A DNA stretch of 64,000 nt from Spirochaetia bacterium (GCA_965198005.1 CBDAOI010000004.1:640001-704000); one strand, 5' to 3'. Positions 14,983 to 24,192 are shown, numbered from the stretch's first letter. Notes: generated from the sequence alone by a model not told the origin. Made by a program: numbers and translations.

Positions 14983-15912
14983 GTGGGAAAGACGGGGAGC
15001 GTTCGCGAGCCAAAGCGGCGTGCCGGGCTGGCTCATTTCTTTGCCAGGATGTGGCGGGAAAAGCCACTGGGTACGATGAGCGGGATAGTTGTCCTGATGC
15101 TGGTTCTTATCAGCATCTTCGCCGATGTGCTGGCTCCCTATGGCTATACGGAAGTGAATCCGGCAGACCGCCTGCAGGGCGCATCGGTGCAGCATCCGCT
15201 GGGCACCGACCAGTTGGGGCGGGACCTGTTGAGCCGCCTGCTCTACGGGGCTCGTATTTCGCTCATTGTCGGTTTGTGCGCCACTTCCATCACGGTTGCG
15301 GTAGCCGTCCTGGTGGGCGGAAGTTCAGGATTCGTCGGTGGAAAACTGGACCTGGTCGTGCAGCGGGTGGTCGATGCCTGGATGGCGTTTCCGGGACTGC
15401 TGCTGTTGTTGACGGTAATGTCGATCGTGGGCCGGGGAATGCTGCAGATCATAGTGGTGCTCGGCATAACCGGGGGCATTCCCGCGTCGCGGATAGTGCG
15501 CGGAGCGGTGATCGGGGTCAAGGAGAGCACCTATTTTCTGGCGGCAGAGTCCATTGGCCGCAAGCAATGGGAGACGCTCGTGCGGCACGTGCTGCCCAAC
15601 ATCGCGGCTCCGGTAGTCATCATCTTCAGTATCAACATCGGAGCGGTGATCATCGCCGAGGCCAGCTTGAGTTTCCTGGGATTCGGTCTGCCGCTGGAGG
15701 TTCCGAGCTGGGGCAGTCTGCTCAGCCGAGACGGGCGCAAGTACATGGAGCAGGCGCCCTGGCTGGCGCTGTGGCCCGGTCTGTGCCTGACCATTCTGGT
15801 CTACAGCCTGAACATGTTCGGTGATGCGCTGCGCGACCTGCTCGACCCCCGGCTGAAGGGCGGCATGGGTCGTATCGGCACGCACGGCGTGCCAACTAGG
15901 CGCGGCGGGTGA
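14983..15912 (+). CDS. ABC transporter permease (OppC/DppC-like)
   Basis: HPLGTDQLGRDLLSRLLYGARISL, RHVLPN, EASLSFLGFG, GDALRDLLDP. Confidence 0.95.
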   Translation: MGKTGSVREPKRRAGLAHFFARMWREKPLGTMSGIVVLMLVLISIFADVLAPYGYTEVNPADRLQGASVQHPLGTDQLGRDLLSRLLYGARISLIVGLCATSITVAVAVLVGGSSGFVGGKLDLVVQRVVDAWMAFPGLLLLLTVMSIVGRGMLQIIVVLGITGGIPASRIVRGAVIGVKESTYFLAAESIGRKQWETLVRHVLPNIAAPVVIIFSINIGAVIIAEASLSFLGFGLPLEVPSWGSLLSRDGRKYMEQAPWLALWPGLCLTILVYSLNMFGDALRDLLDPRLKGGMGRIGTHGVPTRRGG

Positions 15913-16591
15913 GAGGGTCGCCCGCGAACTGCGCCGGCGCGCGCGCTGGCCCACTGGCGCACGCGAACTGTGGTGACCGGAGCCCGGCAGACTGGTAGTG
16001 CGGGCTCTCGTCATCCCGGCGCGGATGGGGACAGGAACTGACGCGCCGAGCGGGAAAGAACAGCTGCGCAAGCAGGGACGGCACCCTCGGTTCGAGACCG
16101 TTCTCCCGCAGGCTCGCGGCCCAGGAATCGAGATAATCCGCGAACGTGCGGTTGGCGGCGGCGTCCCACAGGTTCAGTCGTGCGCAGTCGCGCCACAGGG
16201 CAGGGTGGTCGAGGAACGCCCTCAGCAAGAGCACCGCCACCGCACCGGTCAGCGCCCGCGCACAGCCGGCTGCTTCCAGCGTCGCGCTGTTGTCGGCCAG
16301 CCACTGCGGCGGAGCATCGGGTGCTGAGTACCGGGCCGCGACGTACTCGGCATACTTCACCAACTCCGGCGCGAAGCGCGTCGCCTCCGCGACCCCGGGT
16401 GGCGGATCGTCGATCCAGGTCACCGAGAGCCGATGCAGCACGAACAGCGAGGCCAGCTCGCACAGGCACTCCTCGAACCAGCGGTGCCTGTGCGCGGTGT
16501 GCCGATCGGAGTTGATCATCAGGTGACACAGCTCGTGCGCGAACTGGTACACGTACTGACACCAGAAGGTGTCGCGGGCGCTGATCCGCAT
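15896..16591 (-). CDS. Hypothetical HEXXH zinc-metallopeptidase-like protein, probably 5'-truncated
   Basis: YQFAHELCH followed by WFEECLCE; no convincing RBS. Confidence 0.6.
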   Translation of the reverse strand: MRISARDTFWCQYVYQFAHELCHLMINSDRHTAHRHRWFEECLCELASLFVLHRLSVTWIDDPPPGVAEATRFAPELVKYAEYVAARYSAPDAPPQWLADNSATLEAAGCARALTGAVAVLLLRAFLDHPALWRDCARLNLWDAAANRTFADYLDSWAASLRENGLEPRVPSLLAQLFFPARRVSSCPHPRRDDESPHYQSAGLRSPQFACASGPARAPAQFAGDPLTRRA

Positions 16592-16710: not shown

Positions 16711-16965
16711 ATGAAGAATATCACAGTTTCTGTGGATGAAGACGTCTATCACAGAGCACGGATGTGGGCTGCCGAGCGACGGACTTCGGTTTCGGCGATA
16801 GTGGGGCAGATGCTGATAGAATTCGCGGCCGAGGAGACTCGCTTCGAGCGGCTGCGTCGTGAGGAGTGCGAGTTGCGGGAACGCCTCCGGAGCCGTGGGG
16901 TCAGGTTCGCGGCATCCGACCGGCTCTCACGGGATGCGCTGCACGATCGCCATGCGCTTCGTTGA
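16711..16965 (+). CDS. Ribbon-helix-helix antitoxin (VapB-like)
   Basis: MKNITVSVDEDVYHRARMWAAERRTSVSAIV; overlaps the PIN gene. Confidence 0.85.
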   Translation: MKNITVSVDEDVYHRARMWAAERRTSVSAIVGQMLIEFAAEETRFERLRREECELRERLRSRGVRFAASDRLSRDALHDRHALR

Positions 16966-17371
16966 CACCAACGTTCTGCTCTACAGCGTGAGCACGGATC
17001 CGGCGGAAGCGGGCAAAGCCGCCGCCGCGGTTGGGTTGCTGGCCGACGAGGACCTCTGTCTCTCCGTTCAAGTGCTGCAGGAGTTCTATGTCCAAGCCAC
17101 GCGGCTGACTCGCGCCGATCCCCTGCCGCACGATGACGCGGTCGCGTTCATCGACACATGGCAGCGATTCCGGGTGCAGGAGATGTCGGTTGCGCTGATG
17201 CTGGAGGCGCTCGCGGCGGCCAGGCGCTGGCGCGTGTCCTACTGGGATGCCGCGATTGTCGAAGCGGCGAGGATACTCGACTGTGACGAGTTGTTGACCG
17301 AAGACCTGAATGCCGGTCAGGTGTTCGACGGGGTGACGGTGGTCAATCCGTTTCCCCGACTTGATCGTTGA
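16952..17371 (+). CDS. PIN-domain toxin (VapC-like)
   Basis: FVDTNVLLY, SVQVLQEF, SYWDAAIVEAA, LLTEDL. Confidence 0.92.
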   Translation: MRFVDTNVLLYSVSTDPAEAGKAAAAVGLLADEDLCLSVQVLQEFYVQATRLTRADPLPHDDAVAFIDTWQRFRVQEMSVALMLEALAAARRWRVSYWDAAIVEAARILDCDELLTEDLNAGQVFDGVTVVNPFPRLDR

Positions 17372-17374
17372 CGC

Positions 17375-17585
17375 GACATCACCGCGCCGGTCATCGTCGT
17401 GTTCTCGATCACCATCGGCGGCGTCATCATCGCGAGGGGCGCAGTTTCATGGAGATGGCGCCGCGCCTGGCGATGTGGCCCGGTCTTGCGCTGACTGCTA
17501 CGGTTTACAGTTGAACTTGTTCGGCGACGCGGTGCGGGACCTGCTTGATCCGAGGTGGCGAGGTGGCGTGGGCCGTCATGGCCGT
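17375..17585 (+). pseudogene. 3' remnant of a further OppC-like permease
   Basis: ITAPVIVVFSITIGGVII / REGRSFMEMAPRLAMWPG / NLFGDAVRDLLDPR; internal deletion and frameshifts relative to the intact paralogs. Confidence 0.8.
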
Positions 17586-17656
17586 CAATCCCCGCTTGCC
17601 GCTTCAGGCGATTTCTCCGATGATAGGAGGGACCGAGCATCCGGGAGGAGGTGGAC

Positions 17657-18610
17657 GTGGCGCCACGTTCGAGTTGGAAGGGATTCGTCAGGCTGAGTCT
17701 CGTGTCGGTGCCGGTAAAGGCGTATACCGCCAACGATACCGGCGTGCAGGTACGCCTCAATCAGCTCCACGCCGAGTGCAACAGCCGCATCGCCTACAAG
17801 AAGGTGTGTCCCCAGCACGGCGAGGTAGACAGCGACCAGATCACCCGCGGCTACGAGTACGCCAAGGGGCAGTACGTCGTGATCGACGATGACGAGCTGG
17901 ACAAGCTGCGCACCGCGGGTGACCGCTCGGTCAACATCGAGGGGTTCATGGCCCCGGGGGAGCTGGACGCCGTGTACCACGCCGGCCGCACCTACTATCT
18001 GGTGCCGGACGGTGCGGTCGGGCAGAAGCCGTACGCGCTGCTGGTGCGGAGCATGCAGGAAAACAACGTGCACGCGCTGGCCCAGGTGGTGATCGCGCGG
18101 CGCGAGCAGCTCGTGCTGCTGCGCCCGATCGGCAACGTGCTGGCGATGACCATGCTCAACCACCAGATGAAGGTGAAGGCGGCCGCGTCGTTCGAGGACG
18201 AGGTGGTGGCGGCCGACTGCAGCGCCGCGGAGGTACAGCTCGCCGCGACGCTGATCAACGCCTCCCGGCTGCAGGAGTTCGATTACGCCCGATACACCGA
18301 CCGCTACGTCGAGAAGCTCACGGAGCTGATCCAGCTCAAGGTCGAGGGCGAGGAAGTGGTGCAGGTGGCCGATACCGAGGAGCCGAAGATCATCAATCTG
18401 ATGGAGGCGCTGAAGAAGAGCGTGGCCGAGGCGCAGGGGGCGGCGCCGGCGAGCGACGCGGCGGCGGACGCGGCGGACGGTAAGGCCGCGCCTGCGCGCG
18501 GCGCGGCGGGTGGCCGGAAGCAGGCGCCGAGCGCCAAGGCCCGGCGGCCGCCGGAGGCGGCGGAAGCGGACGTGGCCGCGGCCGCGGACCGCGCGCAGCA
18601 GGCCGGGTAG
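17657..18610 (+). CDS. ku: Ku, NHEJ DNA end-binding protein
   Basis: GGAGGT RBS; RSSWKGFVRLSLVSVPVK, RGYEYAKGQYVV, YYLVP, KIINLMEALKKS. Confidence 0.95.
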   Translation: MAPRSSWKGFVRLSLVSVPVKAYTANDTGVQVRLNQLHAECNSRIAYKKVCPQHGEVDSDQITRGYEYAKGQYVVIDDDELDKLRTAGDRSVNIEGFMAPGELDAVYHAGRTYYLVPDGAVGQKPYALLVRSMQENNVHALAQVVIARREQLVLLRPIGNVLAMTMLNHQMKVKAAASFEDEVVAADCSAAEVQLAATLINASRLQEFDYARYTDRYVEKLTELIQLKVEGEEVVQVADTEEPKIINLMEALKKSVAEAQGAAPASDAAADAADGKAAPARGAAGGRKQAPSAKARRPPEAAEADVAAAADRAQQAG

Positions 18611-18657
18611 CCGGCGGAGCGCGCCCCATCGACCGCCTGCCGGCGACGTTCGCCCCG

Positions 18658-19554
18658 ATGCTGGCCAAGCCGGGCCGGCCGTTCGATTCGGCGCGCCACC
18701 TGTATGAGGTGAAGTGGGACGGCATCCGGGCCATCGCCCTGGTCGAGGGCGGCGGCTACCGGCTGCTGAGCCGCACCGGGCACGACCTCACCGACCGCTA
18801 CTCCGAACTGGCCGCACTCGCCCGGCTGCCCGCCGGCACCATGCTGGACGGTGAGGTGGTGGTGCTGGAGAACGGGATCCCCAACTTCGAGGCGGCGTTG
18901 CGGCACCGCCGCCGGAGCGGTGCGGCGGCGTCCCAACCGGCTCCCCGGTACATGGTGTTCGACCTGCCGTACCGTTCGTTCCAGTCGACCATGGACCGGC
19001 CGCTGCTGGAGCGCAGGGCGCCGTTGCCGGAGCTGGTGGACGGCTGCCGTTCGCCTCTGGTGATCAGTTCCGACGGCTTGGTCGGCGCCGGCATCCGCTT
19101 CTATCGCGAGGTGTGCGCGCGCGGCATCGAAGGGGTGATGGCCAAGCGCGTCGACAGCCGCTACCTGCCGGGCAGGCGTACCGACGCCTGGATCAAGATC
19201 AAGCGGCGCCTGCATCTCAACTGCGTGGTGCTGGGATACTTGGACAAGGAGGGGGATGACTTTCAGAGTCTGATCGTGGCTACCGACCGGGGAAACGGGC
19301 TGCGCTACGCGGGCCGGGTCGGCACCGGATTCACCGCCGCCCAGCGCGGTGCGCTCAAGCGGGTGCTGGTGCGCCGGCGGCGCGCCACCGGGCTGCTGCC
19401 GGTGGCCGACCAGCCTGCCCTGCGGCAACTGCCGGACCCGGTGTGCTGGGTGGACCCGGTCGTGTTCTGCGTCGTCTCCTGCCTCGAATTCAGCAGTTCC
19501 GGGGTGATGCGGGCGCCGGTATTCGAGGGGCTGGTGGAGGAACCGGCGCCATGA
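18658..19554 (+). CDS. Stand-alone ATP-dependent DNA ligase (LigD-ligase/LigC-like: adenylation plus OB domains)
   Basis: Motif I EVKWDGIR, LDGEVVV, YMVFDL, EGVMAKR, WIKIK; OB domain YAGRVGTGF...MRAPVF. Start uncertain. Confidence 0.9.
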   Translation: MLAKPGRPFDSARHLYEVKWDGIRAIALVEGGGYRLLSRTGHDLTDRYSELAALARLPAGTMLDGEVVVLENGIPNFEAALRHRRRSGAAASQPAPRYMVFDLPYRSFQSTMDRPLLERRAPLPELVDGCRSPLVISSDGLVGAGIRFYREVCARGIEGVMAKRVDSRYLPGRRTDAWIKIKRRLHLNCVVLGYLDKEGDDFQSLIVATDRGNGLRYAGRVGTGFTAAQRGALKRVLVRRRRATGLLPVADQPALRQLPDPVCWVDPVVFCVVSCLEFSSSGVMRAPVFEGLVEEPAP

Positions 19555-20810
19555 ACGCGGACCCCGCGCCGCGGCTGCGCAACCGGGAGGTCGCCTTTAC
19601 CGGCCGCCTCGCCTCCATGACCCGCGACGAGGCCGCGGGCCGGGTGACCGCGGCCGGCGGCAGGGTGGTGGGCACGCCGGGTCCCGACACCGCGTGGCTG
19701 GTGGTGGGGCAGGGGGGCTGGCCGTTGCGCGGCGACGGCCGGCCGACCGCCAGCATGCTCCGCGCCCGCTCCCTCGAGCAGCAACCACGCGCGCGCCTGC
19801 AGGTGGTCTCCGAGACCCGGTTCCTGGAGCTGCTCGGCCTGGACGAGAAGGTGGAAGACCTGCAGCGCCTGTTCACCACCGTCCAGCTCGGCCGCATTCT
19901 CGAGCTGCCGACGCGGGAGCTTCGGACCTGGGTGCGGCGCGGGTTGATCCACCCGGTCAAGGTGGTGAATCGCCTGGCCTGGTTCGATTTTCGGGAAGTG
20001 GCGATGGCGCGCGCGCTCCACTCGCTGACCAGCGCCGGAGTATCGCCGGCGCGGATCAGCCGCAGCATCCGCGAGCTGTCGCGCTGGCTGCCGGACGCGC
20101 AGCGCATGTTGACCCGGTTGGAGACCTTCGCCCACGGCCGCGGCCTCGGCATCCGCCTGCAGGACGGACGGCTGGCCGACCCCGCGGGCCAGTTCCTGCT
20201 CGACCTGCATCGCGGCACGTCCGACCCGGCGGGGCCGTTGATTCGCGCGTTCGATCCGCGCGCGGCGGCCGCGGATCACGCTGATGCCGCACCCGGCGCC
20301 GCGGACGGGGAGGGGGACGCCGCTTCGGCAGCGCCCGGCGGGGTGGCCGAGGAGCTGTTCGGGCAGGGGGTGCAGGCGGAAGATCGCGGCCAGTGGGAGC
20401 ATGCGCTGAGCCTCTACGAGCGGTCCCTGGAGGCGGGCGGACCCGACCCGGAAACCTGCTTCAACCTGGGCAACGTGCTGTACGAACTGGACCGCAAACG
20501 GGACGCGGCCAAGCGCTACCTGCAGGCGGTCGAGCTCGATCCCGAGTACGTCGAGTCGCTCAACAACCTCGGCAACGCGCTGGCCGATAGCGGCTGGCTG
20601 ACGGAGGCGGTCAATGCCTACCGGCGCGCGCTGCGCGTGGAGCCGGACTACGCCGACGCGCACAGCAACCTGGCGGAGACCCTGGTGTACCTCGGCCGCT
20701 ACGACGATGCGCGCGAGCACTGGCACGCCTACCTGCGGCTCGACCCGCACAGCTCCTGGGCGCGCGCGATTCGGGAACTGATCCGCAACCTCCCCACCGG
20801 CCCCGGCTGA
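19551..20810 (+). CDS. BRCT plus MerR-like HTH plus TPR-repeat protein
   Basis: GGAGG and ATGA overlap with the ligase stop. BRCT: VAFTGRLASMTRDEAAGRVTAAGG...WLVVG. HTH: LRTWVRRGLIHP...FDFREV. About four TPRs (FNLGNVLY, LNNLGNALA, HSNLAETL). Confidence 0.85.
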   Translation: MNADPAPRLRNREVAFTGRLASMTRDEAAGRVTAAGGRVVGTPGPDTAWLVVGQGGWPLRGDGRPTASMLRARSLEQQPRARLQVVSETRFLELLGLDEKVEDLQRLFTTVQLGRILELPTRELRTWVRRGLIHPVKVVNRLAWFDFREVAMARALHSLTSAGVSPARISRSIRELSRWLPDAQRMLTRLETFAHGRGLGIRLQDGRLADPAGQFLLDLHRGTSDPAGPLIRAFDPRAAAADHADAAPGAADGEGDAASAAPGGVAEELFGQGVQAEDRGQWEHALSLYERSLEAGGPDPETCFNLGNVLYELDRKRDAAKRYLQAVELDPEYVESLNNLGNALADSGWLTEAVNAYRRALRVEPDYADAHSNLAETLVYLGRYDDAREHWHAYLRLDPHSSWARAIRELIRNLPTGPG

Positions 20811-20834
20811 CGCCCGCCTCGCGGTGCGCCTCAT

Positions 20835-22010
20835 TCAGCCCGGATCATGGGTCATCTCCAGGATATCGGAGAATGACCGGTCCGGGGTGAGCGCGCGGAA
20901 AAAGGGCTCGCACGGCAGACACAGCACGCCGCGTTCCCGGATGCGGCGCGGACCGCGGTACAGCAGCAATGGTGTTGCCATGGGGTAGTCCTGCGTGAAG
21001 GCCCGCAGCCCGCTGAAGTCGCGCGGATGGAGTGTCGCGCTGTGCTTGACTTCGATGGCGAACAGCCCGCTCTCCCCGTAAAGCACGAGGTCGACCTCGT
21101 TGCCGGCGCGGGTGCGCCAGAAGCTGAGGGTGTCGTCGCGGTTGGCGTAGGCGAGCCAGGCTCGCAGATGCTGGGCAACCAACCCCTCGAGAGCTGCTCC
21201 CGCAAGTTCTTCGGGGCGGTCGAGCGGCCCCCGCGGCCGCAGCGAACGAAACAACCCGGCGTCCATCAGGTACAGCTTGGGGTGCGTGGTCATGCGCCGC
21301 CGCGCGCGCCGGGTGAACACCGGCAGGGTGAACGCCAGCAGCAGGTCGCGCAGCACCTCGACGTAACCCGTCGCCACCTTGCGCTGCACCTCGCACTCAC
21401 GGGCGAGATTGGACACGTTCAGAACCCCGCCGTGACTGAAGCTCACGGCTTCGAGAAAGCGAGAAAACGCGCCGATGTTCCGCACCAGCCCTTCCGCCTG
21501 TACCTCCTCGCGTACGTAGAGGGCGGCGTATGAGCGCAGCGCGGCGTCCGGATCGGGCGCGTCGACGACCAGCGGTATCAAACCCAGCGTCAGGGCGCGG
21601 TTCAGGCTGAAGCCGGCACCCAGCTCCGCCGCCATGAACGGATGCATGGTCGTGAGCACCGCGCGCCCGGCGAGCAGATCCACGCCGGTGCGATGCAGCT
21701 TGCGGGCGCTGGATCCGGTGAGCACGAAGCGCCGACCCTTGTCGAGCTCGATCAGTTGGTGCACGACCTGCAGCAGTTCCGGCACCCGCTGAACTTCGTC
21801 GATGACGATCGGATTGCTGCCGGGATTCGCCGCGACGGTGTGTCGCAGCCGCTCCGGCGCCGCCCCGTAGAAGCGCGTGTTCTCCGGATCGATCAGGTCG
21901 ATTATCAGGGCCTCCGGGTAGCGGTCGCGCAGCCAGGTCGACTTGCCCGTACCGCGCGGGCCGAAGAGGAAGTAGCTCGCCGGCGGCGGCCGGTAGAATC
22001 GCGCCAACAT
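20835..22010 (-). CDS. AAA_14-type ATPase with DUF4143 domain
   Basis: GPRGTGKS, VIDEVQR, LTGSSA, PKLYLMDAG, EVDLV...AIEVK. Own promoter TGGACA-N17-TAGCGT (22045-22017), 6 nt before the ATG. Confidence 0.9.
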   Translation of the reverse strand: MLARFYRPPPASYFLFGPRGTGKSTWLRDRYPEALIIDLIDPENTRFYGAAPERLRHTVAANPGSNPIVIDEVQRVPELLQVVHQLIELDKGRRFVLTGSSARKLHRTGVDLLAGRAVLTTMHPFMAAELGAGFSLNRALTLGLIPLVVDAPDPDAALRSYAALYVREEVQAEGLVRNIGAFSRFLEAVSFSHGGVLNVSNLARECEVQRKVATGYVEVLRDLLLAFTLPVFTRRARRRMTTHPKLYLMDAGLFRSLRPRGPLDRPEELAGAALEGLVAQHLRAWLAYANRDDTLSFWRTRAGNEVDLVLYGESGLFAIEVKHSATLHPRDFSGLRAFTQDYPMATPLLLYRGPRRIRERGVLCLPCEPFFRALTPDRSFSDILEMTHDPG

Positions 22011-22095: not shown

Positions 22096-24192
22096 TCAGC
22101 GGCTGGCGAGATACTCCTGCAGGCGCTCGATCGCGGGGGCGAAGTCCTGCGGTTCGGTCAGCGTGGCGCGGAACCGGTCGCCGCGCCGCGCCAGCAGGGA
22201 CGGGGTGGTGCCGATGGTGTACCGGCTCGGGTGCAGGTCGCCATCCAGCTCGTCCCAGTCCAGCGGCATCGACACGCAGGCGCCCGGCACCGGCCGCACC
22301 ACGTACGGCGGTACCACGGTGGCGCTCCGGCGGTTCTGGAGGAAGTCGACGTATACCTTGCCGCCGCGGCCGCGCGGCAGCCGTTCGACGCTGGCGAGGT
22401 CGGGCTGCTCGCGCGCCACCACGCGCGCCACGGCCTCCATGAACAGGCGCGCCTGATCGAAGCTGTAGCCGGGCACCAGCGGCAGGTACAGGTGCAGCCC
22501 GGAGGCGCCGGAGGTCTTGACCGCAGGCTCCAGACCGATGCCGCGCAGCACCTTGCCGGCGGTCCGCGCGACCCGTACCGCCGCCGCGAAGCCCGCCTCC
22601 TTGGCGTCCAGGTCCAGCACCGCGAAGTCGGGGCTCTCCAGGCTGCCGCGCCGCGACAGCCACGGATGCAGCTCGATGCTGCCGAGGTTGATCAGGTAGA
22701 TCAGGGTCTCGAGGCCGTTGCACACGAACTGCCGGTCGTGCGCGGCGTCGACCTCCACCAGTTCCACCCAGTCCGGCACGCCGGCGGGGGCCTGGCGCTG
22801 GAAGAACGACTTGCCCTCGATGCCGTCGGGAAAGCGGTTCAGGTGCACCGGCCGGTCGCGCAGGTAGGGCAGCAGGTACTCGGCCACCTGCTCGTAGAAG
22901 CGCAGCAGGTCGCCCTTGGTGTACCCGTCGCGCGGCCAGTAGACCTTGTCCAGGTTGCTCAGCGGGAAGCGTGCGCGCCGCCGGCGGCGGTGGCTGGCGG
23001 CGCGCGCCAGCGCGGACTGCAGCTCGAGGCCGCGCGCGGCGTGGTCCGCGCGCAACCGGATCCGGCGCCAGTCGGCCTGCGGGCCGGCACGGTAGCCGCT
23101 GTGCGCGCGTTTCGCCACCAAGCCGTGAAACCCGGCCGCCGCCGCGGAGGAGGCGAGCTGTTCGCCGCTGCCGGTGACGTGGTCGGCGTAGAGCAGCGTC
23201 CGCATCTCGGGAAGCAGGGCGCGCAGCAGTTGCTTGCGCTCCAGCAACGGCACCGCGCGCAGGTCCCATTCGTCGTAGTGCAGCAGGTCGAACGCGTAGT
23301 AGGTCACGGGCGCGCCGGCGCCGCCGGCCGCCCAGGCGTCGAGCGCGGCGCGGGACGGACGTCCGTGTGCGTCGAGCGCCACCAGCACGCCGTCCAGCAG
23401 CGCCTGCTCCGCCCGCACCCGAGCCAGATCGGCCGCCAGCACCGACTGGGCGCGCGGGTGCAACTCCAGCTCCGATCCGTCCGCGGCGGCCAGCGCCGGC
23501 TGCGCTCCCTGCACGCAGGCGAACGCCCGCAGCCCCTCGAACTCCAGCTCGAAGATCCAGTCCGGATCGGAGAACTGACCGGCGGCTGCCCCGGCGCGCA
23601 TCGCCTGCGGCCGGCGCGGCAACGGCGCAGCGCAGGCGCGCGCATCCAGCACCGGCAGCGGCTCGTCCGCGCCGCGGGCGTACCGGTCACGCGCCTTGAA
23701 CAGCAGCCACTCGTCCGCGCCGCCGGTACGCACCAGGTGCCACTCGCCGCGCAGCCGGCGCCCGCGCAGGATCACCTTCACTTCGCCCGTGGCGAGCGCC
23801 GCTTCCAGCCCGGCGGCCCGCACCACCTCGTACGACCCGCGGTCCCAGATCAGCATCGTCCCGGCGCCGTACTGGCCCGGCGGGATCACCCCCTCGAACG
23901 TCCGGTAGCGCAGGGGATGGTCCTCGGTCCGGACCGCCAGGTGCTTGACCTGCGGGTCGTAGGAGAAGCCGCGCGGCACCGCCCAGCACACCAGCACGCC
24001 GCCGGCGGCCAGGCGCAGATCGTAGTGCAGGCGGCGCGCCTCGTGGCGGTGGATCACGAACGTACCGGCCGTCTCCACCGCCTCCGCGGCCTCCGGCGCC
24101 GCGGCCGGCGCGGGCTCGAACCGAGGCTCCGGCGTGCGGGGAAAGTCGCGCCGGGCGTTATACTCTGCTGGGGAGCGGGACATGCGGGCCAT
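22096..24192 (-). CDS. ligD: LigD-like protein: phosphoesterase, degenerate ligase and primase-polymerase domains
   Basis: PE: HEARRLHYDLRL, WAVPRG, TEDHPL. POL: LSNLDKVYWP, RFPDGI, VLDLD, KTSGASGLH, VDFLQN. Ligase motif I reads ELEFEG, with no Lys. Confidence 0.92.
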   Translation of the reverse strand: MARMSRSPAEYNARRDFPRTPEPRFEPAPAAAPEAAEAVETAGTFVIHRHEARRLHYDLRLAAGGVLVCWAVPRGFSYDPQVKHLAVRTEDHPLRYRTFEGVIPPGQYGAGTMLIWDRGSYEVVRAAGLEAALATGEVKVILRGRRLRGEWHLVRTGGADEWLLFKARDRYARGADEPLPVLDARACAAPLPRRPQAMRAGAAAGQFSDPDWIFELEFEGLRAFACVQGAQPALAAADGSELELHPRAQSVLAADLARVRAEQALLDGVLVALDAHGRPSRAALDAWAAGGAGAPVTYYAFDLLHYDEWDLRAVPLLERKQLLRALLPEMRTLLYADHVTGSGEQLASSAAAAGFHGLVAKRAHSGYRAGPQADWRRIRLRADHAARGLELQSALARAASHRRRRRARFPLSNLDKVYWPRDGYTKGDLLRFYEQVAEYLLPYLRDRPVHLNRFPDGIEGKSFFQRQAPAGVPDWVELVEVDAAHDRQFVCNGLETLIYLINLGSIELHPWLSRRGSLESPDFAVLDLDAKEAGFAAAVRVARTAGKVLRGIGLEPAVKTSGASGLHLYLPLVPGYSFDQARLFMEAVARVVAREQPDLASVERLPRGRGGKVYVDFLQNRRSATVVPPYVVRPVPGACVSMPLDWDELDGDLHPSRYTIGTTPSLLARRGDRFRATLTEPQDFAPAIERLQEYLASR

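Follow-up and report, generated by a model that had tools for sequence, protein, structure and literature searches.

A BRCT, MerR-type winged-helix and TPR protein encoded beside ku as a strong candidate for an additional factor in the repair of DNA breaks by bacteria

The window analysed here, a stretch of 64,000 nucleotides of DNA from a Spirochaetia bacterium, harbours a run of three genes that code for a Ku homologue, a stand-alone DNA ligase and a protein combining a BRCT domain, a MerR-type winged helix-turn-helix (wHTH) and a TPR array. A gene for a LigD-like protein lies downstream in convergent orientation. The features of the locus are as follows.

17657..18610, + strand: ku, coding for a Ku homologue of 317 aa from GTG 17657 (PF02735, 139 bits; TIGR02772 Ku_bact, 244.9 bits, cut-off 150)
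18658..19554, + strand: stand-alone ATP-dependent DNA ligase of 298 aa with NTase and OB domains, motif I KWDG intact (PF01068, 97.5 bits; PF04679, 52.1 bits)
19536..19540, + strand: GGAGG ribosome-binding site inside the ligase gene, 10 nt 5' of the ATG of the third gene, read directly in the sequence
19551..20810, + strand: BRCT/MerR-wHTH/TPR gene (the third gene, P0001), 419 aa, single-copy in the genome
19575..19832, + strand: BRCT domain of the RFC1/LigA class, aa 9-94, with TG motif T17-G18 (PF00533, 18.7 bits)
19863..20075, + strand: MerR-type wHTH, aa 105-175 (PF13411, MerR_1, 33.8 bits, cut-off 21.6, match at aa 109-175)
20076..20225, + strand: family-specific middle piece, aa 176-225, WLPD ... 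RL.DG.LA.P.GQ.LLDF, with G213 and Q214 invariant in alignments
20349..20786, + strand: TPR array, aa 267-412, about four repeats and a capping helix (TPR_2, 86.2 bits)
22096..24192, - strand: LigD-like protein of 698 aa, with 3'-phosphoesterase, a ligase-like NTase domain without catalytic lysine and without OB domain, and primase-polymerase

The ku frame is also open from GTG 17651, and GTG 17657 is the likelier start because the protein then begins with MAPRSSWKG, in keeping with the Ku consensus MAxRxSWKG. A genome-wide search found no second Ku in the 4.9 Mb genome. The ligase scores 215.2 bits against TIGR02779 (NHEJ_ligase_lig), slightly below the cut-off of 227.75, and it ends in a short acidic C-terminal tail, which might conceivably be a ligand of the TPR array. 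As reported in the first-pass annotation, ku, the ligase gene and the third gene are three open reading frames of the + strand, and the third-gene ATG (19551-19553) overlaps the ligase TGA (19552-19554) in an ATGA at 19551-19554, preceded by the GGAGG. A more upstream start at GTG 19443 was rejected, as the N-termini of homologues align to ATG 19551 instead. Among 36 BRCT-type homologues with a Ku or ligase gene upstream, 18 start no more than 20 nt from the upstream stop; an overlap with that stop was scored in 10, one of which is an artefact, and 4-nt overlaps recur. The stop/start overlap is thus a recurrent trait of the family and no local accident.

Neither internal promoter-like sites nor + strand terminator-like sites were found in the 17300-21100 region. 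One RNA-library contig crosses the junction between the ligase gene and the third gene (19477-19682), a weak indication, as DNA carry-over is possible. In four metatranscriptome runs from a single study, contigs match ku, stretches of the ligase gene and the junction; they leave the body of the third gene uncovered, and contigs cannot show absence of a transcript.

The first-pass annotation regarded the LigD-like protein as a LigD processing enzyme. The processing domains are indeed present, with matches to PF13298 (135 bits), PF21686 (270.4 bits), TIGR02778 (235 bits, cut-off 214.7) and TIGR02777 (176.7 bits, cut-off 144), but the description is incomplete, since a ligase-like domain is there as well. 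The latter scores just 34.5 bits against PF01068 and reads ELEFEG at motif I (aa 215-220, nt 23533-23550), with EFEG where KxDG is expected, and the protein has no match to the OB domain PF04679. The catalytic lysine is also absent from 30 of 31 such LigD-like NTase domains of related loci, and at all 48 loci compared KxDG is retained in a stand-alone or LigD ligase.

The three domain assignments made for the third protein in the first-pass annotation were borne out. Its BRCT domain, proposed to be of LigA type, scores 18.7 bits against PF00533, below the Pfam gathering cut-off of 21.3. The assignment is nevertheless supported because 60 of the 80 homologues are recognised by PF00533 at E<=0.01 (the best at 9e-11) and because a profile of aa 1-230 finds, among solved structures, RFC1 (2ebu/2k6g, E 1.1-1.2e-6) and LigA (2owo, 5.9e-6; 1l7b, 1.9e-5). 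Moreover, when 400 further genomes from the window's phylum were searched, this profile gave 10 matches, none of which extends beyond its positions 2-96; the open frames that contain them are either as long as LigA (about 683 aa) or 277-416 aa in length. G18 is invariant in an alignment of 80 sequences; position 17 is T or A, and R25 is R, H or Q.

Like the single DNA-binding BRCT domains of RFC1 (p140), LigA and PARP1, that of the third protein has the TG motif, and RFC1 and LigA are the best solved matches of aa 1-95. Unlike them, it is N-terminal in a non-enzymatic protein and carries a family-specific GWPL..DG insertion; among 34 Ku-linked BRCT forms, position 17 is T in 22 and A in 10. 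RFC1 uses a basic residue as its third ligand of the phosphate; this residue is not conserved in the third-protein family. [quoted passage not shown]

The wHTH signature PF13411 was matched in all 80 homologues. Among solved structures, GlnR (4r4e, E 1.8e-9) and TnrA (4r22, 7.7e-7) are the closest, with CarH, SkgA and BrlR as further regulators. The third protein thus resembles MerR regulators of the minimal GlnR/TnrA type in having a complete winged-HTH N-domain. It seems to differ from them in having no recognisable long dimerisation helix, and it has TPRs in place of a MerR-type effector domain. Behind the wHTH comes a stretch with a conserved LP(D/G), followed by a beta-like GQ motif. Searches of the middle piece against Pfam and the PDB returned nothing except a weak run-on of MerR/SkgA alignments, those to MerR 5crl and SkgA 7cla extending to profile positions 93 and 123, respectively. 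Past aa 267 only TPR families match in Pfam, with no C-terminal effector domain of known MerR type. The array of about four TPRs is above the cut-offs for TPR_2, TPR_11 (79.1 bits) and TPR_1 (70.9 bits), and it displays a ladder of Asn residues (N305, N308, N338, N339 and N373) which, together with E277, are near-invariant in 55 Ku-linked homologues.

An exhaustive profile search yielded 475 clusters of this family at 50% identity (E<=1e-30), the best 150 matches being 188-561 aa long. No fused forms with Ku or ligase were found among proteins of 735-2095 aa. One apparent ligase-MerR fusion (P0088) was discarded, since it looks like a frameshifted read-through across neighbouring genes. The neighbours of one homologue (P0086) in the ESM structural atlas are its own family's clusters alone, auto-named BRCT/MerR/TPR. 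PADLOC gave no defence-system match for Ku, the ligase or the LigD-like protein, and two weak sub-domain matches for the third protein.

We surveyed the genetic environments of homologues. A Ku gene lies upstream on the same strand at 54 of 80 homologue loci (52 of 76 if loci with less than 3 kb of upstream sequence are set aside), and some NHEJ gene is found within 10 kb at 58 of the 80, or 59 if a LigD-Pol remnant is counted. In a sample of 301 Planctomycetota-type genomes, the family is present in 41, Ku in 39 and both in 23, for an odds ratio of about 19, and in 21 of these 23 genomes ku and the family gene are no more than 4 kb apart on one strand. Homologues that are mostly unlinked to ku or ligase genes, the outcome named in the first-pass annotation as counting against its proposal, are therefore not what the survey returned.

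Three NHEJ layouts display this linkage: ku-lig-gene accompanied by a convergent LigD-like gene, ku-gene in genomes that encode a full LigD at another site (five of five tested), and ku-gene-ligD. The constant neighbour is thus ku. Ku-linked members occur in all parts of the family tree, with identities as low as about 30%, and 21 of 31 BRCT-less members keep the linkage. The Ku proteins associated with the family are 46-75% identical to the window Ku. Those of 16 family-negative genomes of the same phylum, with full LigD or tandem Ku pairs, are 25-37% identical to it. Most homologues bear Planctomycetota labels; in the sample of the window's own phylum the family was found in 1 of 401 genomes, that is in the window lineage alone. 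On the pSymB replicon of Sinorhizobium meliloti, ligD, a ku open reading frame, a 28%-identical homologue and xth stand in a row.

Sizeable numbers of carriers have no Ku. In the same 301-genome sample, Ku is absent from 18 of the 41 family-positive genomes. Among 10 Ku-less genomes tested, none has a LigD-Pol above cut-off and just two have any ATP ligase. The third protein is therefore not an obligate NHEJ subunit. Four Ku-less complete genomes without ATP ligase retain the whole BRCT-MerR-TPR architecture, and both the TG motif and the complete Asn ladder are intact in five of the 10 (G401-G405), so these conserved surfaces cannot serve Ku, ligase or LigD alone. In one deep Ku-less clade of complete genomes (L087-L094), every ladder residue is replaced, which suggests a changed partner, although this single lineage amounts to one event. 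Dependence of the TPR ladder on Ku was considered as a general rule and dropped, the ladder being lost in this one Ku-less clade and kept in five NHEJ-less genomes. At loci without a detected NHEJ gene, the neighbours are varied housekeeping genes (Pfam analysis of 84 ORFs from 21 loci), and likewise in six Ku-less complete genomes (30 ORFs).

Our preferred reading, to which we assign a probability of only about 0.4, is that the third protein might be a DNA-end- or duplex-binding adaptor of a variant NHEJ module. That module would consist of Ku, the stand-alone ligase, the third protein and the LigD-like phosphoesterase/polymerase with its dead ligase domain. The third protein would be made from one transcript with Ku and the ligase, and its translation would be coupled to that of the ligase. 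Its N-terminal BRCT domain, of the RFC1/LigA/PARP1 class, would grip broken or nicked DNA by its backbone or a 5' phosphate, and the winged helix of MerR type would bind the adjoining duplex. An extended peptide of a partner protein would be held by the short TPR array, whose invariant Asn residues form a ladder. A repair partner could thereby be held at, or recruited to, Ku-bound ends.

The adaptor reading is favoured by the linkage to ku seen at the level of loci, phylum sample, layouts and family tree, by gene spacing and by the type of Ku involved. The S. meliloti gene row, the RFC1/LigA class of the BRCT domain and the lack of internal promoter- or terminator-like sites in 17300-21100 also speak for it. 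It is weakened by the facts that the family outlives NHEJ, that its neighbours are then varied, that no fusions were found and that the HTH is closest to those of transcription factors. The first-pass annotation had pictured a scaffold that bridges Ku, the ligase and the LigD enzyme. In such a four-part machine, the third protein would bind 5'-phosphorylated ends and Ku, hold Ku, the ligase and the LigD-derived pseudo-ligase phosphoesterase/polymerase at the break, and be needed for efficient joining, a fuller scheme that we consider rather doubtful. It would make the third protein a bacterial counterpart of XRCC1 or XRCC4/XLF by role, not by ancestry.

HTH and TPR domains are combined in regulators that sense a peptide or a protein, of the Rap/NprR/PlcR or AimR kind. 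The main rival to the adaptor, which is live even if we lean against it, is a transcription regulator, in line with the damage-responsive regulator that the first-pass annotation gave as its alternative. This would be a protein whose MerR-type HTH would bind operators, whose TPRs would sense a peptide or protein and whose BRCT domain would sense broken DNA, controlling its own ku operon and other genes. The MerR_1 signature, above its cut-off in the window protein and found throughout the 80 homologues, and the kinship of the wHTH with GlnR, TnrA, CarH, SkgA and BrlR argue for this possibility. The gene is single-copy and usually last in its operon, like those of some autoregulators, and its conserved residues are intact in NHEJ-less genomes among varied neighbours; control of other genes would explain this persistence. 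However, a crude scan upstream of ku at 52 loci found no conserved palindrome, and the shared motifs are -10-like elements alone (TGCTATAGT, TGGTATCCT). In the same kind of crude scan, readable ku promoters have TTGACA with a 17-18 nt spacer, or an extended -10, compared with spacers of 19-20 nt in MerR-activated promoters; no MerR-type operator or long-spacer promoter was thus detected upstream of ku. Also weighing against a regulator are the stretch behind the wHTH, broken by the conserved LP(D/G), the replacement of the MerR-type effector domain by TPRs, the tight coupling of the gene to the ligase or ku gene and a BRCT domain of the directly DNA-binding class.

The persistence of the family in genomes devoid of NHEJ also fits a general repair or replication helper of a universal partner (e.g. 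the NAD+ ligase LigA, SSB or proteins of the RecA pathway), often encoded near ku but with no NHEJ-specific role. The 18 Ku-less carriers out of 41, the architecture kept whole in the four complete genomes without Ku or ATP ligase and the Asn ladder retained in five NHEJ-less genomes all agree with it. We nonetheless deem it improbable: such a helper would not be expected beside ku in 21 of the 23 genomes that have both genes, nor across three NHEJ layouts. The loss of all ladder residues in the Ku-less clade, again one event in one lineage, suggests a changed partner there and also speaks against it. Finally, the linkage might have no functional meaning, the gene hitch-hiking on a mobile ku cluster. 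The cluster does look transferable, given the rarity of the family in the window's phylum and the predominance of Planctomycetota-labelled homologues. Yet the linkage survives to about 30% identity, through changes of gene order and loss of a domain, with at least eight state changes on well-supported branches. Because of this persistence and of these forced changes, selection for proximity fits better than one shared transfer, and hitch-hiking appears very improbable.

In the available text of PMC7969030, PMC6379672 and PMC7719229, bacterial NHEJ is described as Ku plus LigD. The window resembles the canonical two-component systems of Mycobacterium, Pseudomonas and Bacillus (a Ku homodimer and LigD) in having clustered genes for Ku, a LigD-type phosphoesterase and primase-polymerase, and a LigD-type ligase. 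It departs from them in that the ligase has a gene of its own, only an NTase remnant lacking the lysine and the OB domain is left in the LigD-like protein, and the operon has a third conserved gene. In the literature covered, including the available text of PMC7719229, PMC9226535, PMC10386641 and PMC6379672, no BRCT-MerR-TPR protein is reported with Ku. PMC7719229 points to a supplementary table in which 20 further domains of Ku and LigD proteins are given. Among eukaryotic BRCT scaffolds (XRCC1, XRCC4-ligase IV and the BRCT domains of Pol lambda/mu), XRCC1 is described, in the accessible part of PMC6334254, as a scaffold whose central BRCT domain binds poly(ADP-ribose) and DNA. The third protein may be likened to these scaffolds by analogy, as a non-catalytic BRCT protein tied to ligase and Ku genes. 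In contrast to them, it pairs its BRCT domain with a wHTH and TPRs, and the homology is limited to the BRCT fold class.

In teaching and in genome engineering, bacterial NHEJ is treated as a system of two proteins. The persistence of a third gene beside ku in different phyla and gene orders, and after loss of domains, would imply that this system has an overlooked accessory or control layer. In a large group of genomes the gene is paired with a dead-ligase LigD and a separate ligase. Should the third protein prove to be a regulator, it would be a transcription factor of a new type, linked to DNA breaks. Dupuy et al. call the ku2/ligD2 pathway of S. meliloti its main NHEJ route (available text of PMC6379672); if the pSymB locus is the ku2/ligD2 locus, the homologue of the third gene lies in that main route.

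The first-pass annotation had described a co-oriented row of ku, a ligase gene and a third gene (BRCT, MerR-like HTH and TPR), the last with an ATGA overlap and a GGAGG, and reading of the sequence confirmed this observation on the locus:

ku, open from GTG 17651 and ending at 18610 (+): Ku homologue
18658-19554 (+): ATP-dependent ligase, 298 aa, motif I KWDG intact
19536-19540 (+): GGAGG before the third gene, read from the sequence
19551-20810 (+): third gene, 419 aa, ATG at 19551, overlapping the ligase stop (ATGA 19551-19554), stop at 20810
20835-22010 (-): AAA_14/DUF4143 ATPase gene, convergent on the ku operon
22096-24192 (-): LigD-like gene, 698 aa, convergent, with 3'-phosphoesterase, weak ligase-NTase and primase-polymerase domains

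Starting ku at GTG 17657 gives an N-terminus matching the Ku consensus MAxRxSWKG, and ATG 19551 is matched by homologue alignment. The ligase-NTase match of the LigD-like protein scores 34.5 bits, without an OB domain. The genome holds a single Ku and a single copy of the third gene. The AAA_14/DUF4143 gene, which separates the third gene from the LigD-like one, codes for a protein whose PADLOC match is PDC-S01, a candidate defence family (198.9 bits); as tblastn found no counterpart in any of 80 related loci, it looks like a local insertion, outside the system. Directly 5' of ku, at 17375-17582 (+), the final ~95 codons of a permease gene (ABC, Dpp/Opp-type) persist as a frameshifted remnant. 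Over 123 nt it shares 77% identity with the 3' end of an intact permease gene (14983-15912), and the block separating the two copies may therefore be an insertion. Between them lies a toxin-antitoxin-like pair (16711-17371, +), consisting of an 84-aa protein with a weak DUF6364 match followed by a VapC-like one with a PIN domain (PF01850, 36.5 bits). A 230-aa ORF at 15896-16591 (-) has no family match.

Consensus scans, used alone, detected neither a promoter-like site nor, on the + strand, a terminator-like one inside 17300-21100. Part of this stretch is present in sixteen public runs, among them four metatranscriptomes that come from a single study and carry the label sponge metagenome. Contigs of these four are identical to the window; they cover ku and parts of the ligase gene, and one metatranscriptome stretch (19477-19682) bridges the ligase stop and the third-gene start, a weak hint of co-transcription, with DNA carry-over possible.

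The proposed coupling of the third gene to ku holds beyond this locus. A word-indexed search with its product, P0001, matched >953 proteins, named, where at all, only as 'tetratricopeptide repeat protein', and an exhaustive profile search yielded 475 cluster representatives at E<=1e-30; databases name this family by domains only. In a linkage census of the 80 best genome loci, using tblastn with the window's own proteins, Ku lies upstream on the same strand in 54 (52 of the 76 loci having at least 3 kb of upstream sequence), and some NHEJ gene is found within 10 kb in 58, to which a LigD-Pol remnant in locus L004 is additional. With one ku in a 5 Mb genome, we estimate that chance alone would place it in a given 20 kb stretch well under 1% of the time. 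Three layouts were found: ku-lig-gene with a convergent LigD-like gene (all three in 28 loci, ku-lig in 11 more), ku-gene alone (10 loci) and ku-gene-ligD (5 loci, labelled Phycisphaerae). Five ku-gene genomes encode a full LigD elsewhere, its ligase and polymerase sharing a single frame of about 880-1030 aa. With layouts varying in this manner, ku is the constant neighbour.

We also sampled 301 genomes from the phylum to which one MAG with a homologue belongs (Planctomycetota by its record label). Of these, 41 have the family core (44 matches less 3 that are BRCT-only) and 39 have Ku; 23 have both, and in 21 of these 23 the two genes lie within 4 kb on one strand. Linked members occur throughout a maximum-likelihood tree of 85 core sequences, from which two fragments (L065, L075) and two near-duplicates (L089, L092) were omitted; on this tree 13 changes of the linkage label are required, and starred branches force at least 8 of these. 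Linkage is found in 21/31 BRCT-less members versus 33/49 BRCT forms. Half of the BRCT-type genes with Ku or ligase upstream (18/36) start within 20 nt, and overlap was scored in 10/36, one being an artefact of a frameshifted locus. The window's genus has the third gene in 8 of 10 genomes, and its sister genus the BRCT-less form in 11 of 13. The linkage of the family to end joining is thus real, and the association with ku is both strong and ancient.

The domains assigned to the third protein, namely a BRCT, a MerR-like HTH and about four TPRs, were borne out by Pfam, homologue and solved-structure matches. P0001 matches TPR_2 strongly (86.2 bits) and MerR_1 at aa 109-175 (33.8 bits, cut-off 21.6), the latter being matched in 80/80 homologues. 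Its BRCT (aa 9-94) scores 18.7 bits, under the Pfam cut-off of 21.3. This call is nevertheless supported by PF00533 matches at E<=0.01 in 60/80 homologues (best 9e-11), by a profile of aa 1-230 whose matches include the BRCT structures of RFC1 (E about 1e-6) and LigA (5.9e-6), and by the 10 matches of this profile in 400 other genomes of the window's phylum, which cover only profile positions 2-96 and lie in open frames either as long as LigA (about 683 aa) or 277-416 aa long. The closest solved relatives of the wHTH are GlnR (4r4e, E 1.8e-9), TnrA, CarH and SkgA. It is followed by a family-specific piece, WLPD ... RL.DG.LA.P.GQ.LLDF, in which G213 and Q214 are invariant, then by a variable low-complexity linker and the TPRs. 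In the array, N305, N308, N338, N339, N373 and E277 (hereafter the ladder) are near-invariant; Asn ladders in TPRs bind extended peptides.

The suggestion of a third NHEJ subunit stands as regards linkage but not as an obligate role, since 18 of the 41 family-positive genomes of the phylum sample are Ku-less. Among the five genomes from which unlinked loci came (G401-G405), none has Ku, none has LigD-Pol and one has an ATP ligase. Likewise, Ku-less G448, G475, G561, G675 and G578, with matches in 5.4-7.4 Mb contigs, show an ATP ligase in 1/5 and LigD-Pol over the cut-off in 0/5; these complete genomes keep the whole BRCT-MerR-TPR architecture, among housekeeping neighbours. The family therefore also lives without NHEJ. 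Where tblastn saw no NHEJ gene, Pfam analysis of 84 neighbouring ORFs in 21 loci (including L004) revealed no second shared theme. In L088, L091 and L093, from Ku-less complete genomes of the Planctomycetota-type sample, Pfam identifies a divergent serine hydroxymethyltransferase gene beside the homologue, and the ORF layout of L089 is that of L088. L093 also has a LexA gene two genes downstream of the homologue. Every ladder residue is replaced in the complete-genome Ku-less clade (e.g. YQEETQCHH at positions 277-373), and the L088/L091/L093 clade keeps the BRCT TG motif and wHTH despite ladder loss. G401-G405 keep ENNENN.HN and the TG motif, which makes the residue comparison mixed. The TPR partner therefore cannot be only Ku, ligase or LigD.

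The end-joining genes accompanying the family form a variant. In 30/31 related loci, the motif I lysine is missing from the middle domain of the LigD-like protein (replaced by E, R, A, D, S, L or Q), with EFEG in place of KxDG in the window (23533-23550, -); an intact ligase gene is then always present separately. Among ligases that are separate or LigD-borne, KxDG is retained in 48/48 cases. Our literature search found no description of such pseudo-ligase LigDs. Family-linked Ku proteins are 46-75% identical to the window Ku (44 proteins, at least 250 bits), versus 25-37% for Ku of 16 family-negative genomes of the phylum sample, which is found with a full PE-Lig-Pol LigD (4 loci and one cut at a contig end), in tandem pairs (5 loci), or alone within 3 kb. 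These differences indicate that the family travels with one particular kind of end-joining cluster. Family-linked Ku harbours a near-invariant H..C...C..H pattern, LHxxCNSRIxYxKVCPxHGE (window H40, C43, C53 and H56), which could bind metal. A related C..C pattern is present in other bacterial Ku, and H..C...C..H may thus not be special.

We tentatively read the third protein as a DNA-binding adaptor of this variant NHEJ module (probability about 0.4). A transcription regulator, a somewhat less likely role, would be consistent with an HTH of a transcription-factor family, with the persistence of the family without NHEJ and with an HTH+TPR layout like that of peptide-sensing regulators. However, crude scans found no common palindrome upstream of ku in 52 loci, and ku promoters with 17-18 nt spacers or an extended -10, in contrast with the long spacers of the MerR type. 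Moreover, the MerR-type effector domain is absent, the stretch after the HTH is broken by proline, the gene follows ligase or ku with tight coupling, and the BRCT is of the class contacting DNA phosphates. It is improbable that the protein is a general repair helper, and the linkage is very improbably meaningless hitch-hiking. The third gene is most aptly classed as a new accessory gene, conserved and belonging to a variant NHEJ cluster of bacteria, its mechanism being only proposed.

A full-text literature search, limited to main texts, found no description of a BRCT-MerR-TPR protein with Ku, and the excerpts of PMC7719229, PMC9226535, PMC10386641 and PMC6379672 make no mention of one. On Sinorhizobium meliloti pSymB (CP073680.1; locus L112, 2482-8428), we found an annotated ligD, a ku ORF, a homologue, a small ORF and xth in a row. 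This homologue has 361 aa, is named 'tetratricopeptide repeat protein' and shares 28% identity with P0001 over residues 54-406; Pfam detects TPRs only, and BRCT- and MerR-like parts are putatively recognized by eye, as is a hydrolase-like character of the small ORF before xth. The row from ligD to the exodeoxyribonuclease III gene suggests a larger end-processing operon in Alphaproteobacteria.
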